This document shows, piece by piece, positions 1-6,879 of a DNA stretch of 6,879 bases; positions within the stretch are counted from its first letter, which is position 1; every line of letters begins with the position of its first letter. The stretch lies in IMG/VR virus record IMGVR_UViG_2681813233_000006, one strand, 5' to 3'. This DNA is from a virus. Taxonomy: Duplodnaviria; Heunggongvirae; Uroviricota; Caudoviricetes. A program made the translations under genes and the position numbers. The notes beneath the pieces are model-generated. The model did no database searches. It was given only the letters and a program-made list of their open reading frames with translations, and had not been told where the DNA came from.

Positions 1-14
1 TGGTTTGGGAGAAG
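1..14. repeat. Inner arm of the left inverted repeat / left crossover site of the invertible segment (truncated by the window edge)
   Basis: Positions 1-14 (TGGTTTGGGAGAAG) are the exact reverse complement of 1865-1878 (CTTCTCCCAAACCA). The match stops at position 15 versus 1864. Confidence 0.7.
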
Positions 15-391
15 CGGCAACGAGGAACGTCGGAACGGGTACCGGCCAAGTACCAGATATGAGTAGTTTTACAACGGGGCACTCTGGAGCAGCAGACTGG
101 CCGATTCCTAAATCTGGATGGAGTAAGGGGCCGGATGGGGTAATTACACAATGGGGTATTTTCGGTTTCCCCGTTGGACAGACAGGGACGAATGTTGTTT
201 TCCCGCTACCTTTCCCCGCGCGGGTCGAATCAATTACACTGACAATAGCAGATATCCAGGAGTCTCTGCTTTCTCCAACAACCATGCCTGCTTATGGAGT
301 TAACTCAACTGGTACTTCAAGAACGGGTTTTACAGCCCGTATGTCAGGCGTCGGTGGGTTTAATCTTTGCTATATAGCGAAAGGGAGATAA
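1..391 (+). CDS. Tail-fibre protein, C-terminal variable (receptor-binding) segment, Sv-like; 5'-partial. The ORF is open to the window edge in this frame; the track's start at position 5 is a TTG, not a real start.
   Basis: Frame is open from position 2 (GGT TTG GGA GAA...) to the TAA at 389-391. Gly/Thr/Ser-rich translation typical of fibre tips. It is followed 4 bp later by a tail-fibre assembly gene with its own Shine-Dalgarno, and it starts inside the inverted repeat that defines the invertible segment. Confidence 0.75.
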   Translation, partial: GLGEAATRNVGTGTGQVPDMSSFTTGHSGAADWPIPKSGWSKGPDGVITQWGIFGFPVGQTGTNVVFPLPFPARVESITLTIADIQESLLSPTTMPAYGVNSTGTSRTGFTARMSGVGGFNLCYIAKGR

Positions 392-395
392 CAGA

Positions 396-839
396 ATGAA
401 TAAAGTTAAAAGTGTTTACAGCCCGTCCGAAAATGCAATCTACAACGCAGCGCTATATGAAAGTTATATCAAGGAGGGGACATGGCCGCAGGATGGTATT
501 GAAATCAGCGATGAGGATGCTGTCAGATTTAATGGGGGAAATAAGCCAACAGGAAAAATGCTGGGAATGGTTTCAGGGACCCTTGCATGGGTTGATGAGC
601 CGCCGCTTTCACCAGAACAGAAAATATCAGATGCAGAAAACATGAAAGCCACATTTCGTGCAAAAGCTGACAGTGAAATATCCTGGCGTCAGGATGCTGT
701 TGATGCTGGTATCGCAACTGATGAAGAAACTTCAACTCTCACCCAATGGAAGAAATACCGTGTGCTGCTGATGCGTGTTGATACGTCAACAGCACCCGAT
801 ATTGAATGGCCTACGCCTCCGGCAGCTCAGGCCAGATGA
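396..839 (+). CDS. Tail-fibre assembly protein (Mu U / P2 G / Tfa family chaperone), 147 aa
   Basis: Shine-Dalgarno AAGGGAG at 381-387. C-terminus ...WKKYRVLLMRVDTSTAPDIEWPT... carries the conserved tail-fibre-assembly C-terminal motif (as I recall it from E. coli TfaE-type proteins). Positioned directly after the fibre tip. Confidence 0.85.
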   Translation: MNKVKSVYSPSENAIYNAALYESYIKEGTWPQDGIEISDEDAVRFNGGNKPTGKMLGMVSGTLAWVDEPPLSPEQKISDAENMKATFRAKADSEISWRQDAVDAGIATDEETSTLTQWKKYRVLLMRVDTSTAPDIEWPTPPAAQAR

Positions 840-1413
840 CATCAGGCGCGGTGCTGGTATCTGTTGCCGTCACCGCGTCAATGTAATCCAGCACGACGTT
901 AAGTCGGGTTGTTTCTGCCGGCGTCAACTTCCGTCCGGCCTGTAATTTCAACTGAATCAGACTAATGGAAGCTATTGCAGTATCCATCAGCGACTGGCGC
1001 TGTGCTTCTGCTGCATCTACTGCGGCGCTATGCTGTGCCTCGGTATCCGTCACCCATTTCTCACCATCCCATTTATCGTATGGCGTTAACGGGGCTATAG
1101 TGGTTGTATTTTCAGGGTAATCACCCGGAGTTGTGATTTCTTTGGCGTCTCCCGTTTCGGTGTTATAGACGATTTCACCGCGATGGTCTGGCACATATTC
1201 CCATGAGTTTAAATCTGCCGAACGGCAGATTGCATAACCAGCCTTATGTATACCAGGTTCATCCAGACAGGAATATGCCGGGATACCAACACCAACGGCA
1301 AGATATTCATTTGAAGTGGAAATATATTCCCGAGTTTCACCATCATAGCTATAGACGGTAATATTCCCCGCCTTCGTGGCAATAAGCTCGCTATTTAATA
1401 CAGCGTTATCCAT
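811..1413 (-). CDS. Alternative tail-fibre assembly protein (U'/Tfa'-like), 200 aa, partner of Sv'
   Basis: C-terminus ...DTSTAPDVIWPELPEA has the same conserved Tfa motif. Its start codon overlaps the stop of the upstream minus-strand fibre-tip ORF at 1411-1415. Convergent with the + strand Tfa, overlapping it by 29 bp. Confidence 0.8.
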   Translation of the reverse strand: MDNAVLNSELIATKAGNITVYSYDGETREYISTSNEYLAVGVGIPAYSCLDEPGIHKAGYAICRSADLNSWEYVPDHRGEIVYNTETGDAKEITTPGDYPENTTTIAPLTPYDKWDGEKWVTDTEAQHSAAVDAAEAQRQSLMDTAIASISLIQLKLQAGRKLTPAETTRLNVVLDYIDAVTATDTSTAPDVIWPELPEA

Positions 1414-1919
1414 TATGCAGCCCTCACGATAAAGTTAAATGCAATATTTCGCGCACGTGTTTCCGTTGATGTTCTGGCAACACGTGATGCATCAAAATAA
1501 TAATTCGCCTGTTTATATGTACCACCTGTCGCAATTGATGCGAGATTTGGTGTCAATGTTAAAGAGGCAAATGCGCCGACAGTATTATTATTTGGCCCCG
1601 TGGTCATATCCAAAAAGCTACCTGTAATATTTTGCAGCGTATCGCTCTGAGCACTCAATAACGCTCGCCCACTGTCCACTCCACGCCCATCATCCCAGCC
1701 ACGAATAAACTCACCACGTAAATCAGGCAATTTATTTGTCGGGTAAGCCTTTGCCAGCTCCGGGTATTCTTCAGCAGAAAAAGCTGCACCATTGCATTTC
1801 AACCAGCCTGTCGGTGGTGTAGCTGAAGGCCACGGAACAGGCACACCAACCGGTAATGCAGAGCCTTCTCCCAAACCAACGTTTAAGAAAATGCAGCGAT
1901 TACGACTAACTGGCATCAT
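1413..1919 (-). CDS. Alternative tail-fibre C-terminal variable segment (Sv'-like) with a phage tail-collar-like motif; silent in this orientation. The part inside the invertible segment is about 1413-1879; the ATG at 1919 is probably not a real start.
   Basis: Translation contains GWLKCNGAAFSAEEYPELAKAY, which resembles the tail-collar domain of Mu S / P2 H-type fibres. The reading frame continues across the right inverted repeat, as required for fusion to the constant fibre part after inversion. Confidence 0.7.
   Translation of the reverse strand: MMPVSRNRCIFLNVGLGEGSALPVGVPVPWPSATPPTGWLKCNGAAFSAEEYPELAKAYPTNKLPDLRGEFIRGWDDGRGVDSGRALLSAQSDTLQNITGSFLDMTTGPNNNTVGAFASLTLTPNLASIATGGTYKQANYYFDASRVARTSTETRARNIAFNFIVRAA
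1866..1891. other. Right crossover site (hix/gix/cix/pix-like 26-bp site with AA core at 1878-1879)
   Basis: TTCTCCCAAACC-AA-CGTTTAAGAAAA has the two imperfect inverted half-sites AAACC...GTTT around a 2-bp core. By my recollection it matches hixL (TTCTTGAAAACCAAGGTTTTTGATAA) at about 19 of 26 positions. The inner half-site coincides with the 14-bp inverted repeat. Confidence 0.65.
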
Positions 1920-1946
1920 CCCCGGTTTTTATTCAGGGAGATGATC

Positions 1947-2513
1947 ATGCTTATTGGCTATGTACGCGTGTCAACAAATGACCAGAACACCGATTTGCAA
2001 CGTAGTGCGCTGAACTGCGCGGGATGTGAGCAGATTTTTGAGGACAAAATCAGTGGCACTAAGTCCGACAGACCGGGGCTGAAAAAACTACTCAGGACAC
2101 TATCGGCAGGAGACACGCTGGTTGTCTGGAAGCTGGACAGGTTGGGGCGCAGTATGCGGCATCTTGTTACGCTGATAGAAGAGTTGCGCCAGCGTGGTGT
2201 GAATTTCAGAAGCCTGACTGACAGTATTGATACCAGTACCCCAATGGGCCGTTTCTTTTTTCATGTCATGGGTGCCCTGGCTGAAATGGAACGCGAACTG
2301 ATAGTTGAACGTACCAGGGCAGGGCTGGCTGCAGCTCGTGCCAAAGGCAGAGTAGGTGGACGCCGTCCTAAGTTGACCACCGAACAGTGGGCACAGATTG
2401 GGCGTTTACTCGAGGCCGGAGAATCAAGACAGCGTATTGCACTGATTTTTGATGTAGGCGTTTCTACCATTTATAGAAAATTTCCGGCAAATAAGATCAA
2501 TGAATCCCCCTGA
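1947..2513 (+). CDS. Serine DNA invertase, Gin/Pin/Cin/Hin family (resolvase-type catalytic domain plus C-terminal helix-turn-helix)
   Basis: Translation MLIGYVRVSTNDQNTDLQR...LVVWKLDRLGRSM...SPMGRFFFHVMGALAEMERELIVERT...GRVGGRRPKL...STIYRKF is near-identical in its conserved blocks to Gin/Hin/Pin as I recall them. The track ORF starts at 1941 (MIM...), but the Shine-Dalgarno AGGGAG at 1935-1940 abuts that ATG and lies 6 nt before the ATG at 1947, which gives the canonical MLIGY N-terminus. Confidence 0.93.
   Translation: MLIGYVRVSTNDQNTDLQRSALNCAGCEQIFEDKISGTKSDRPGLKKLLRTLSAGDTLVVWKLDRLGRSMRHLVTLIEELRQRGVNFRSLTDSIDTSTPMGRFFFHVMGALAEMERELIVERTRAGLAAARAKGRVGGRRPKLTTEQWAQIGRLLEAGESRQRIALIFDVGVSTIYRKFPANKINESP
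1965..2045. promoter_or_regulatory. Probable Fis-dependent recombinational enhancer inside the 5' coding region of the invertase gene
   Basis: In Hin/Gin/Cin systems the enhancer lies within the first 60-170 bp of the invertase ORF, about 100-165 bp from the adjacent crossover site. This stretch (GTGTCAACAAATGACC...GATTTGCAACGTAGTGCGCT...) is in that position and resembles my memory of the hin enhancer. Exact Fis sites are not asserted. Confidence 0.4.
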
Positions 2514-2655: not shown

Positions 2656-3828
2656 ATGGCTCAGGATTACCACCACGGGGTGCGCGTTGTTGAAGTCAAC
2701 GAAGGCACCCGATCTATTACCACGGTGAGCACCGCCATCGTGGGTATGGTCTGCACGGGCGATGATGCCGATGCAAAAATGTTTCCTCTTAATAAACCCG
2801 TGCTGATCACTGATGTGCTGACTGCCAGCGGTAAAGCGGGTGAGTCCGGTACTCTGGCCCGTTCGCTGGATGCCATCGCTGACCAGGCAAAACCCGTGAC
2901 CATTGTTGTGCGTGTGCCGCAGGGTGAAACGGAAGACGAAACCACGACCAATATCATCGGCGCAGTGACTGCTGAAGGTAAAAAAACAGGTATGAAAGCC
3001 CTGTTATCTGCCCAGTCACAGCTCGGCGTTAAACCGCGCATTCTCGGCGTGCCAGGCCACGACACCAAGGCGGTAGCTACTGAGTTGCTGAGCGTGGCGC
3101 AAAGCCTGCGTGGATTTGCTTACCTGTCAGCGTATGGCTGCAAGACAGTGCAGGAGGCGATCACTTACCGCGAAAACTTCAGCCAGCGCGAAGGGATGCT
3201 GATCTGGCCTGACTTTACTGGTTGGGACACGGTGCTGAATGCCGAAGCAACGGCATATGCCACCGCCCGTGCGCTTGGTCTGCGCGCCAAAATTGACGAG
3301 CAGACCGGATGGCACAAAAGCCTGTCCAACGTGGGCGTGAACGGTGTCACCGGAATTTCTGCAGATGTGTTCTGGGATCTGCAGGACCCGGCAACCGATG
3401 CAGGTCTGCTGAACCAGAACGACGTCACCACGCTTGTGCGTAAAGACGGTTTCCGCTTCTGGGGTTCCCGCTGCCTGAGTGATGACCCGCTCTTTGCCTT
3501 CGAAAACTACACCCGCACGGCGCAGGTGCTGATGGACACGATGGCAGAAGCACACATGTGGGCGGTGGATAAACCGCTTAACCCGTCGCTGGCCCGCGAC
3601 ATTATCGAAGGTATCCGCGCCAAAATGCGCAGCCTGGTCAGTCAGGGCTATCTCATTGGTGGTGATTGCTGGCTGGATGAGTCGGTGAACGACAAAGACA
3701 CGCTGAAAGCCGGAAAACTCACCATCGACTACGACTACACGCCAGTGCCGCCACTTGAAAACCTGATGCTGCGTCAGCGCATCACCGATCAGTACCTGGT
3801 GAATTTCGCCAGCCAGGTCAGCGCGTAA
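2656..3828 (+). CDS. FI: Contractile tail sheath protein (P2 gpFI family), 390 aa
   Basis: Shine-Dalgarno AGGAGG at 2641-2646. Translation [19 protein letters not shown]...[14 protein letters not shown]...GFRFWG...[16 protein letters not shown]...[13 protein letters not shown]...RQRITD matches P2 FI sheath proteins along its full length, as recalled. Confidence 0.95.
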
Positions 3829-3837
3829 GGGGACAAC

Positions 3838-4353
3838 ATGGCTTTACCACGCAAATTAAAACACCTGAACCTGTTTAACGACGGGAACAACTGGCAGGGG
3901 ATCGTTGAGTCGCTGACGCTGCCGAAATTTACCCGCAAATATGAGAAGTATCGCGGCGGCGGAATGCCGGGTGCGGTGGATGTGGATCTGGGGCTTGATG
4001 ACAGTGCGCTGGACACAGAATTTTCCATTGGTGGTACTGAATTGCTGCTGTTTAAACAGATGGGTAAAGCCACGGTGGATGGCATCCAGCTGCGCTTTAC
4101 CGGCTCTATTCAGCGTGACGATACCGGGGAAGTGCAGGCCGTGGAGCTTGTCGTGCGTGGACGTCACAAAGAAGTGGATTCCGGCGAGTGGAAGACGGGC
4201 GAAAGCAACACCACCAAAGTGACCAGTACCAACAGCTACGCGAAGCTGACCATCAATGGTGAGGTGCTCTATGAAGTGGACCTTATCAACATGGTGGAAA
4301 TTGTGGACGGTGTGGACCTGATGGAAGCGCACCGCAACGCCCTCGGCCTCTGA
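3838..4353 (+). CDS. FII: Tail tube protein (P2 gpFII family), 171 aa
   Basis: Starts 10 bp after the FI stop with a Shine-Dalgarno AAGGGGA. Size and position are identical to P2 FII. Translation MALPRKLKHLNLFNDGNNWQG... is typical of myovirus tube proteins. Confidence 0.92.
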   Translation: MALPRKLKHLNLFNDGNNWQGIVESLTLPKFTRKYEKYRGGGMPGAVDVDLGLDDSALDTEFSIGGTELLLFKQMGKATVDGIQLRFTGSIQRDDTGEVQAVELVVRGRHKEVDSGEWKTGESNTTKVTSTNSYAKLTINGEVLYEVDLINMVEIVDGVDLMEAHRNALGL

Positions 4354-4407: not shown

Positions 4408-4710
4408 ATGAGCGATAAGCAGACTGAAAAGACCATTCAACTGGATACCCCCATCAAGCGCGGTAAAACAGAAATCACCGAAATTGTGCTGCGTAAACCG
4501 CAGTCCGGTGCGCTGCGCGGTACACGCCTGCAGGCCATTATGGATATGGATGTAAACGCGATGATGATCGTGATCCCCCGCATCTCCAGTCCGGCACTGA
4601 CTGCACAGGAAATTGCTGAGATGGACCCGGCAGATCTCACTGCCATGTCGGTTGAGGTTGTCACTTTTTTGTTGAAGAAGTCGGTGCTTGCCGGTTTACC
4701 GACAGCCTGA
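4408..4710 (+). CDS. E: Tail assembly chaperone gpE (lambda gpG analogue), 100 aa, zero-frame product
   Basis: Located between the tube and tape-measure genes. Contains the slippery heptamer T_TTT_TTG near its 3' end. Confidence 0.85.
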   Translation: MSDKQTEKTIQLDTPIKRGKTEITEIVLRKPQSGALRGTRLQAIMDMDVNAMMIVIPRISSPALTAQEIAEMDPADLTAMSVEVVTFLLKKSVLAGLPTA

Positions 4711-4844
4711 CGGTTGACGATCTGGTGGCAGATATCGCCACCATTTTTCACTGGCCGCCATCCGTTACTGACGTTATGCCGCTGACCGAAGTGCTGGAAT
4801 GGCGGTATAAAGCGATTCAGAGAAGCGGGGCCAACGATGAGTGA
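4408..4844 (+). CDS. E': gpE+E' tail assembly chaperone made by a programmed -1 ribosomal frameshift at 4665-4671 (joined as 4408..4671 then 4671..4844)
   Basis: The heptamer TTTTTTG at 4665-4671 is in X_XXY_YYZ register with the E frame. The -1 frame is open from there to the TGA at 4842-4844, which overlaps the tape-measure ATG at 4837 (ATGAGTGA). The lambda G/GT and P2 E/E' arrangement is conserved in this position. Confidence 0.75.
4665..4671 (+). other. Slippery heptanucleotide T_TTT_TTG for the E/E' -1 frameshift
   Basis: Codon register checked by hand against the E start at 4408 (ACT TTT TTG in zero frame). Confidence 0.7.
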
Positions 4845-6879
4845 TAACAACCTGCGTCTGCAGGTCATTCTTAATGCGGTTGACAAGCTCACCCGCCCAT
4901 TTCGATCTGCGCAGGCCAGTTCAAGAGAACTGGCTGCTGCTGTCAAAAAATCCCGCGATGCAATAAAGCAGCTTGATCAGGCCGGGAGCAGTCTGGACAG
5001 CTTCCGAAAGCTGCAGGCAGAAAATCAGAAATTAGGCGACAGGCTGAACTATGCCCGCCAGCGTGCAAATTTGCTCAGTCAGGAACTGGGAGCGATGGGG
5101 CCGCCTTCGCAACGTCAGGTTGTTGCTCTGGGCCGTCAACGGCTGGCTGTTCAGCGTCTGGAAGAACGCCAGAAAAAGCTGCAGCAGCAGACGGCGCTTG
5201 TGCGTGCTGAACTGTACCGGGCGGGAATTTCTGCGAAAGACGATGCGGGAGCAACTGCCCGTTTAGCCCGTGAAACATCACGTTATAACCAGGAACTTTC
5301 GAAACAGGAGGCGCGGCTGAAGCGACTGGGGGAAGCTCAGCGCAGGATGAATGCAGCGCGTGCCAGTTATGCCCGTTCGCTGGAGGTGCGTGATCGTATT
5401 GCAGGTGCCGGAGCCACCACCACGGCTGCAGGGCTGGCAATGGGCGCACCAGTGATGGCGGCAGTAAAAAGCTATACCAGCATGGAAGATGCCATGAAAG
5501 GTGTGGCAAAGCAGGTCAATGGTCTGCGTGACGATAATGGCAACCGCACTGCACGTTTTTATGAAATGCAGGATGCCATCAAGGCTGCCAGCGAACAGTT
5601 GCCGATGGAAAACGGTGCGGTGGATTTCGCTGCACTGGTTGAAGGTGGTGCGCGCATGAACGTCGCAAACCCTGACGACAGTTGGGAAGATCAGAAACGT
5701 GACCTGCTGGCCTTCGCCAGTACGGCAGCAAAGGCGGCAACAGCCTTTGAGCTGCCAGCGGATGAACTGTCAGAAAGTCTGGGGAAAATCGCCCAGCTCT
5801 ACAAAATCCCCACCCGCAATATTGAACAGCTCGGTGATGCGCTGAACTATCTGGATGATAACGCCATGTCGAAAGGGGCAGACATCATTGATGTGATGCA
5901 ACGTCTGGGCGGTGTGGCTGACCGTCTGGATTATCGTAAAGCGGCGGCGCTGGGTTCCACCTTCCTGACACTGGGCGCTGCGCCAGAGGTTGCAGCCAGT
6001 GCAGCAAACGCGATGGTGCGTGAATTGTCCATTGCCACCATGCAAAGCAAAAGTTTCTTTGAAGGGATGAATCTGCTGAAACTCAATCCTGAAGTGATTG
6101 AAAAGCAGATGACGAAGGATGCGATGGGAACCATCCAGCGCGTGCTGGAGAAGGTAAACGCGCTGCCGCAGGACAAGCGCCTGTCTGCCATGACTATGTT
6201 GTTTGGTAAAGAGTTTGGCGATGACGCGGCGAAACTGGCAAACAACCTGCCGGAACTGCAGCGTCAGTTAAAACTGACAGCGGGCAATGATGCGCTCGGC
6301 TCCATGCAGAAAGAATCCGACATTAACAAGGATTCACTTTCTGCGCAGTGGTTGCTGGTCAAAACCGGAGCGCAGAACACCTTCAGCAGCCTGGGCGAAA
6401 CGCTGCGCCAGCCGCTGATGGATATTCTGTACACGGTGAAAAGCGTCACGGGAGCGTTGCGTCGCTGGGTGGAAGCTAACCCGGAACTGACAGGCACACT
6501 GATGAAAGCATCGGCTGTTGTGGCTGCGGTTACCGTCGGCCTCGGCACCTTAGCGGTGGCGCTGGCTGCAGTGCTGGGGCCGCTGGCAGTGATCCGTCTG
6601 GGATTCTCTGTGCTGGGTATCAAAACGTTATCTTCCGTTACGGCAGCAGTAACTCGAACCAGCAGCGCGTTGTCCTGGCTGGCTGGCGCACCACTGGCAC
6701 TGCTGCGACGCGGGCTTGCTTCATCGGGCAACGCCGCAGGTTTACTTACTGCGCCGTTGTCGTCTTTGCGCCGCACGGCATCACTGACGGGAAATGTCCT
6801 GAAAACTGTAGCAGGTGCGCCGGTTGCACTTTTGCGGTCTGGATTATCCGGTTTACGTGCTGTTGCTGTGATGTTTATG
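4837..6879 (+). CDS. T: Tail tape-measure protein (P2 gpT family); 3'-partial, 681 codons with no stop before the window end
   Basis: I translated the frame by hand from the ATG at 4837 to 6879 without meeting a stop. It has a coiled-coil-like N-terminus (QKKLQQQTALVRAELY...), a Gly/Ala-rich hydrophobic segment and C-terminal LLR-type repeats. It lies immediately after E/E'. The ORF track omits it only because it has no stop in the window. Confidence 0.9.
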   Translation, partial: MSDNNLRLQVILNAVDKLTRPFRSAQASSRELAAAVKKSRDAIKQLDQAGSSLDSFRKLQAENQKLGDRLNYARQRANLLSQELGAMGPPSQRQVVALGRQRLAVQRLEERQKKLQQQTALVRAELYRAGISAKDDAGATARLARETSRYNQELSKQEARLKRLGEAQRRMNAARASYARSLEVRDRIAGAGATTTAAGLAMGAPVMAAVKSYTSMEDAMKGVAKQVNGLRDDNGNRTARFYEMQDAIKAASEQLPMENGAVDFAALVEGGARMNVANPDDSWEDQKRDLLAFASTAAKAATAFELPADELSESLGKIAQLYKIPTRNIEQLGDALNYLDDNAMSKGADIIDVMQRLGGVADRLDYRKAAALGSTFLTLGAAPEVAASAANAMVRELSIATMQSKSFFEGMNLLKLNPEVIEKQMTKDAMGTIQRVLEKVNALPQDKRLSAMTMLFGKEFGDDAAKLANNLPELQRQLKLTAGNDALGSMQKESDINKDSLSAQWLLVKTGAQNTFSSLGETLRQPLMDILYTVKSVTGALRRWVEANPELTGTLMKASAVVAAVTVGLGTLAVALAAVLGPLAVIRLGFSVLGIKTLSSVTAAVTRTSSALSWLAGAPLALLRRGLASSGNAAGLLTAPLSSLRRTASLTGNVLKTVAGAPVALLRSGLSGLRAVAVMFM

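Follow-up and report, generated by a model that had tools for sequence, protein, structure and literature searches.

How is an open reading frame translated that starts within the 3' end of a phage tail gene, runs in the -1 frame and closes just inside the tape measure gene: from a start codon of its own, or as an extension of the upstream protein reached by a shift of the ribosome? The window, by which we mean the whole stretch of 6,879 nucleotides analysed here, carries the late tail genes of a P2-like (Peduoviridae) prophage, an operon encoding sheath FI, tube FII, chaperone E and tape measure T. From sequence comparison, we conclude that E, which follows the tube gene and precedes the tape measure gene, very probably undergoes a programmed -1 frameshift of the P2 E/E+E' type. 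The features that bear on the question are these.

2656..3828, plus strand: gene FI, contractile tail sheath protein, the first gene of the F-E-T operon (Pfam Phage_sheath_1, 7.8e-33; Phage_sheath_1C, 1.8e-23).
3838..4353, plus strand: gene FII, tail tube protein, upstream of E (Pfam Phage_tube, 8.8e-60).
4408..4710, plus strand: gene E, zero-frame tail assembly chaperone of 100 aa (from the ORF list; ATG 4408, TGA 4708-4710).
4665..4671, plus strand: slippery heptamer T_TTT_TTG, the proposed -1 shift site (read from the sequence).
4671..4844, plus strand: E' extension in the -1 frame, 57 sense codons followed by TGA 4842-4844 (from translation).
4837..6879, plus strand: gene T, tail tape measure, which runs off the window end (ATG 4837-4839; Pfam PhageMin_Tail, 9.5e-19).

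The assignment of E was based on both domain and family matches. Its product matches Phage_TAC_7 (PF10109) at 1e-18 over residues 9-88 (Pfam, cut-off 25 bits), a family described in Pfam as 'phage tail assembly chaperone proteins, E, or 41 or 14', and PHROG 103 ('tail protein') at 1.6e-43. The start of E agrees with the annotation in Escherichia phage 500465-1 and phage Cartapus, and the start of T, which stays open for 681 codons to the window end, agrees with related phage records. Near its 3' end E reads GTC ACT TTT TTG TTG AAG, which places T(4665)_TTT(4666-4668)_TTG(4669-4671) in the X_XXY_YYZ register, with TTT 4666-4668 in the ribosomal P site and TTG 4669-4671 in the A site. E contains no other X_XXY_YYZ heptamer in register, and both frames are open around this one, the -1 frame from 4656 and the zero frame to its stop at 4708. 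Translated from G4671, the -1 frame gives VEEVGACRFTDSLTVDDLVADIATIFHWPPSVTDVMPLTEVLEWRYKAIQRSGANDE (VEEVGACRF...SGANDE), and joining 4408-4671 to 4671-4844 gives an E+E' product of 145 aa. At the downstream end, E' and T overlap by 8 nt: ATGAGTGA at 4837-4844 contains the ATG of T as well as the stop of E', the TGA lying 3 nt past the ATG. The register of the heptamer and this overlap had both been put forward in an earlier note on this DNA, and the codons of E and the coordinates of T confirm them. The same note gave the -1 frame 58 codons up to TGA 4842-4844; its stop and coordinates hold, whereas the sense codons number 57 and reach 58 only when the stop is counted.

Judged by its homologies, the -1 frame after the heptamer codes for protein. 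In E', residues 19-55 match Phage_P2_GpE (PF06528) at 4e-19 (Pfam) and residues 3-57 match PHROG 1756 ('tail protein') at 1.8e-22; a conceptual E+E' fusion matches Phage_TAC_7 (1e-18) and Phage_P2_GpE (4e-19) together. A sequence search of the PDB found no relative. Among the 1440 codon positions of the other plus-strand genes in the window, 1.5% are followed by a -1 frame that stays open for at least 57 codons; this background rate and the family matches rule out a chance ORF. The heptamer by itself is at chance level, since the window has two copies of TTTTTTG and shuffles predict 1.6; it is the combination of features that exceeds chance.

The closest comparison is with phage P2, whose E/E+E' pair has been characterised by experiment. 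In the P2 reference record, E (91 aa) stands beside a two-piece joined CDS, E+E', which carries the note 'shares amino terminus with gpE; -1 frameshift; essential tail protein', and a misc_feature named 'site of -1 translational frameshift' lies one base past TTTTTTG. The shift at this heptamer in P2 yields the 91-aa E and a 142-aa E+E' (Christie et al. 2002, as reported in PMC3091744). The P2 heptamer is identical to ours and falls in the same columns of a pairwise DNA alignment, without gaps nearby, and the shift site lies near the 3' end of E in P2 and window alike. gpE of P2 and E of the window share 44% identity (BLASTP 1e-24). The comparison of E' with its P2 counterpart, which the earlier note had suggested, bears out the likeness in both length and sequence: each has 57 codons, they align ungapped, and 32/57 residues are identical (56%). 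The two fusion proteins likewise align without internal gaps. In the -1 frame the very first residues past the shift are already homologous, with V-E-E-V-G-A in the window and V-A-E-L-G-A in P2. The overlap of E' stop and T ATG, ATGAGTGA here and ATGAGTAA in P2, has the common geometry ATGAGTRA with the stop 3 nt past the ATG, and the gene order FI-FII-E-T is common to the window and P2 (the FETUD tail operon of P2). A P2-type E/E+E' locus is thus present here in each of its parts: a gpE homologue, an E' homologue, an in-register heptamer, a location between FII and T, and a conserved signal and frame.

There are also differences from P2. E is 100 aa long here and 91 aa in P2, with 3 extra N-terminal residues here; the zero-frame tail past the heptamer has 12 codons against 6 in P2; and the codon preceding the Phe codon is ACT (Thr) here and GGT (Gly) in P2.

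To follow the arrangement through its relatives, one genome per species was scanned, which gave 80 loci; with P2 added and two truncated loci removed, 79 comparators were available. The loci span many genera of gamma- and betaproteobacteria, in the Enterobacterales and beyond, and include Citrobacter, Enterobacter, Pantoea, Providencia, Xenorhabdus, Pseudomonas, Cupriavidus, Ralstonia and Chromobacterium. They were found partly via a peptide pattern inside E', and this selection accounts in part for the presence of E' in them, but not for the frame offset or the heptamer.

Several findings emerged from these relatives. First, in 78 of 79 the sequence homologous to E' is read in the -1 frame with respect to that homologous to E, which bears on the earlier note's question whether homologous phages keep this frame open; the exception is the locus L037 described below. 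Second, an in-register TTTTTTN occurs where both frames are open in 78/79, the seventh base being G in 64, A in 13 and T in 1. Third, the heptamer was found in all 17 of the clusters formed at 70% amino acid identity, and it persists across loci of 39-67% GC, in which Leu is otherwise encoded by 700 CTG vs 83 TTG codons. Fourth, the E' amino acid alignment is conserved from the first codon past the shift (V/A-x-E-V/I-G), with E' lengths of 54-59 codons and zero-frame tails past the heptamer of 6-22 codons. Lastly, an ATG stands 5 nt ahead of the E' stop in 55 of the 79, and in 52 of those it is the sole nearby ATG. Homology of both frames, the heptamer in the P2 column, the family matches, the gene order and the conservation in 78/79 relatives together support the frameshift reading, and with it the earlier note's view of the locus as a tail-chaperone frameshift like P2 E/E' and lambda G/GT.

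Two further observations concern the relatives. The only one with E and E' fused in one frame, in a product of ~141 aa, is L037:1501-1917, from Candidatus Symbiopectobacterium sp., where the T-run is kept but out of register and a short deletion lies just upstream. This locus is probably a decaying prophage, or else a natural 'E+E' only' variant; judged from its reading frame, a fused E/E' product can exist without a frameshift. In the overlap of the two frames, the zero-frame E tail (4672-4707) continues after the heptamer as L-[KP]-K-S-[VA], and the nucleotides CCGAAGTCGG in this region are ~90% conserved among relatives. The two frames are about equally conserved there: for the first six residues after the heptamer, identity averaged over pairs is 0.55 in the zero frame vs 0.50 in the -1 frame. 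The pattern is consistent with a dual coding constraint in the E/E' overlap.

Under the frameshift reading, the majority of ribosomes would read E to the zero-frame stop and produce the 100-aa chaperone. A minority would shift when the P site holds TTT 4666-4668 and the A site TTG 4669-4671; the two tRNAs, for Phe and Leu, would re-pair one base back on UUU UUU, and decoding would restart at GTT 4671-4673. These ribosomes would add 57 residues and end at TGA 4842-4844, just inside T, giving an E+E' of 145 aa whose first 88 residues are common with E. Such a tandem slip would put Leu at position 88, with the junction ...VVTFL-VEEVG... and the junction peptide ...SVEVVTFLVEEVGACR.

A different junction would result if tRNA-Phe alone moved, from UUU 4666-4668 to 4665-4667, while the A site was empty: ...VVTFF-VEEVG... 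(...TFFVEEVGACR), the one that the earlier note had proposed for mass spectrometry. The six-T run permits a P-site-only slip and the product would have the same length of 145 aa; moreover, P-site-only slippage with A-site pairing in the -1 frame has experimental support for a dnaX variant, according to the discussion of it in PMC5009743. Against this, the G or A at the seventh base in 77/78 relatives points to selection on an A-site Leu codon (UUG or UUA) whose tRNA re-pairs on UUU, and the published shift at P2-like sites is placed after the terminal G in the description given in PMC3091744. Because the seventh base is so nearly always G or A, we favour the tandem model and consider a P-site-only slip unlikely. 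The junction of the earlier note would accordingly not be the expected one, since in a canonical tandem slip UUG is read as Leu in the A site before the tRNAs move, and TFL-V results.

The frame could also be read without any shift, and this is how existing records treat part of it.

4725..4844, plus strand: fragment of E' annotated as a stand-alone 39-aa gene, 'GpE family phage tail protein', from GTG 4725 (NC_049342, CP019275, OV696611 and RefSeq E. coli).

If this gene model were right, E' would be a separate 39-aa protein with its own initiation at GTG 4725, as near-identical phage records and PGAP have it. Consistent with the model, a start-capable codon (GTG or ATG) stands at the equivalent position in 64/78 relatives, and PF06528 covers only the part of E' downstream of GTG 4725. 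However, the other 14/78 lack ATG, GTG and TTG at this point (they have ATC, ATT, GCG, GTC, CAG or TAC), and the 18 codons upstream of GTG 4725 are open in the -1 frame and conserved in amino acid sequence back to the heptamer, a stretch into which the PHROG 1756 match (residues 3-57) extends. An AGGAG-type Shine-Dalgarno sequence was not seen just ahead of 4725 (GGTTGACGATCTG). Independent initiation would also leave unexplained why the heptamer is kept in 78/78 of the relatives with a -1-frame E', and the P2 record gives E+E' as a joined CDS for an essential tail protein. With a start codon that is not conserved and homology that extends upstream of it, independent initiation of E' at GTG 4725 was rejected and is very improbable; the stand-alone 39-aa gene is an annotation artefact of an unmodelled frameshift. 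The earlier note had said that gene callers miss E'. They do fail to join it to E, but its 3' two-thirds are called, as the 39-aa ORF from GTG 4725. NCBIfam gave no match for E, E' or the 39-aa fragment, though the PGAP name is that of a GpE family.

It is also highly unlikely that RNA polymerase makes the shift by adding one U at the T6 run in some transcripts: the site is indeed a homopolymer run at which one added U would give the same frame for E+E', and a few relatives have T7 or T8 where the preceding base is also T, but productive transcriptional slippage in bacteria uses runs of ~9 A or T in the account of PMC5009743, against 6 here, the T-run is not selected for length (the preceding codon being ACT, GGT, AAT and so on), the conserved trait is the X_XXY_YYZ register with G/A as seventh base (77/78), which is a ribosomal and not a polymerase signature, and the P2 event is annotated as a translational frameshift in the P2 record and so named in the title of Christie et al. 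2002, J Bacteriol 184:6522 (as cited in PMC3091744 and PMC5009743).

Returning to programmed ribosomal frameshifting, we considered which elements might stimulate it. The earlier note had pointed to a downstream stimulatory structure in 4672-4720, and this expectation was not borne out. The region folds into a hairpin of -13.5 kcal/mol that starts 8 nt past the heptamer (4680-4711) and is no better than shuffled sequence (z = -0.68; 50/200 shuffles fold equally well). RNAalifold, run on 31 diverse relatives, returned 0 consensus pairs downstream of the heptamer, and when the window hairpin was followed across relatives 63% of cells were paired and convincing covariation was not found. A longer fold, of 89 nt, gave z -2.1, mainly through its strongest helix (4723-4742), which lies 51 nt downstream. 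A conserved downstream stimulatory structure was therefore rejected. The absence of conserved downstream RNA structure agrees with the P2 literature: for P2 and the Burkholderia P2-like phages, which keep the frameshift site, PMC3091744 reports no hairpin within 60 nt. P2 and the window are therefore alike in this respect too, and an RNA structure seems not to be needed; as in the published account of P2, the heptamer seems to work mostly by itself.

A second candidate lies on the other side of the heptamer.

4654..4659, plus strand: Shine-Dalgarno-like GAGGTT (GAGGTG in most relatives), candidate 5' stimulator, 5 nt upstream of the heptamer.

The spacing of GAGGTK to the heptamer is about 5-7 nt, and AGG is found at -10 in 55/76 sequences. 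Its Glu codon is GAG in 55 sequences vs GAA in 5, whereas the rest of these genes use GAG at 38%; counted per cluster, the figures become ~8 GAG vs 4 GAA, and the motif is missing from several deep lineages. Shine-Dalgarno stimulators of -1 frameshifting have a spacing of 9-14 nt as described in PMC5009743. Since the codon bias collapses at cluster level and the spacing falls outside 9-14 nt, the upstream element is a weak lead only. It is quite improbable that GAGGUK (4654-4659) acts as a 5' stimulator at a spacing shorter than the dnaX rule of 9-14 nt; if it did, it would represent a variant stimulatory arrangement for bacterial -1 frameshifting.

The frameshift proposed here resembles that of lambda G/GT in several ways. 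In each, the chaperone gene lies between the major tail (tube) and tape measure genes, and a -1 slip near its 3' end yields, or here would yield, the longer product in a low and constant proportion to the shorter; by gene order and signal the locus belongs with the lambda G/GT-like class. Sequence similarity between the two systems is not expected, and the heptamers differ, that of lambda being G_GGA_AAG and that of the window T_TTT_TTG. The lambda tail is non-contractile, whereas the window encodes a contractile sheath. The proposal for lambda, as summarised in PMC5009743 (which cites Levin, Hendrix & Casjens 1993 and Xu, Hendrix & Duda 2004, 2013, 2014), assigns tape measure binding to the N-terminal part and tube protein binding to the extension. 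By analogy with lambda G/GT and P2 genetics, we infer that the shared N-terminal domain would coat the tape measure protein, and that the E' domain would recruit tail tube protein, with the tube then polymerising around the tape measure; both products would be absent from the mature virion. The frameshift would set a fixed, sub-stoichiometric ratio of E+E' to E. P2-type sites shift 2-3 times more often than lambda G/GT according to PMC5009743. That E and E+E' are both made and both needed for tail assembly comes from P2, and is predicted for the window.

The cassettes of E. coli dnaX and the IS3 family also work by X_XXY_YYZ tandem slippage on the bacterial ribosome, as proposed here. They are described in PMC5009743 as combining a 5' Shine-Dalgarno sequence at 9-14 nt with a 3' stem-loop. 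The window departs from this type in that a conserved 3' structure is absent, no conserved stem-loop or pseudoknot having been found 5-9 nt past the heptamer. Its Shine-Dalgarno-like GAGGTK stands nearer to the heptamer, at 5-7 nt, and some lineages have lost or never had it.

The phage itself belongs to a different genus from P2, being Wadgaonvirus or Elveevirus-like, with an invertible tail-fibre segment beside the operon. The phages nearest to the region are Escherichia phage 500465-1 (Peduoviridae, Wadgaonvirus) at 99.7% and phage Cartapus at 97% identity, and the best E. coli prophage matches to the window reach up to 99.8% identity. The upstream part of the window (1-2513), an invertible tail-fibre (host-range) switch adjoining the tail operon, contains the following.

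2-391, plus strand: alternative fibre C-terminus (Gp53-like_C).
396-839, plus strand: Caudo_TAP assembly gene of the 2-391 fibre C-terminus.
811-1413, minus strand: Caudo_TAP assembly gene of the 1413-1919 fibre C-terminus.
1413-1919, minus strand: alternative fibre C-terminus (Collar domain).
1941-2513, plus strand: serine invertase (Pfam Resolvase, 2.7e-53, plus HTH_7).

The serine invertase is accompanied by two alternative fibre C-termini that flank it on opposite strands, each with its own Caudo_TAP gene. A 14-nt perfect inverted repeat joins 1-14 and 1865-1878, the window edge cutting its left arm, and the sequence at 1866-1891 (TTCTCCCAAACCAACGTTTAAGAAAA) may be similar to a Gin/Cin/Hin-type crossover site. 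Between this switch and the sheath gene, in the sole long intergenic gap (2514-2655), where a P2 Ogr-dependent late promoter element would be expected, TGTGTGAATAACGACACA at 2562-2579, 77 nt before the sheath ATG (2656), forms a TGT-N12-ACA dyad; the pattern alone is at chance level in the window, with 3 found vs 2.1 expected.

The frameshift mechanism, its conservation in P2-like phages and the absence of a downstream stimulator have all been published already, and biologically nothing here is new. The worth of the finding is mainly that of an annotation correction. The Phage_P2_GpE Pfam model (PF06528) has 37 positions and covers just the fragment callable from an internal GTG or ATG; it appears to have been built from shortened stand-alone ORFs and not from the full 57-residue extension, of which PHROG 1756 spans residues 3-57. 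Related copies of the region were found in 999/5426 complete E. coli genomes, with 294 records at >=99% identity (at least 99%), which means that about 1 in five complete E. coli genomes carry this prophage type, and the matches listed show the 39-aa protein and not the 145-aa E+E'. For proteomics databases, structure prediction and phage engineering, the correct protein is the one given by join(4408..4671, 4671..4844).
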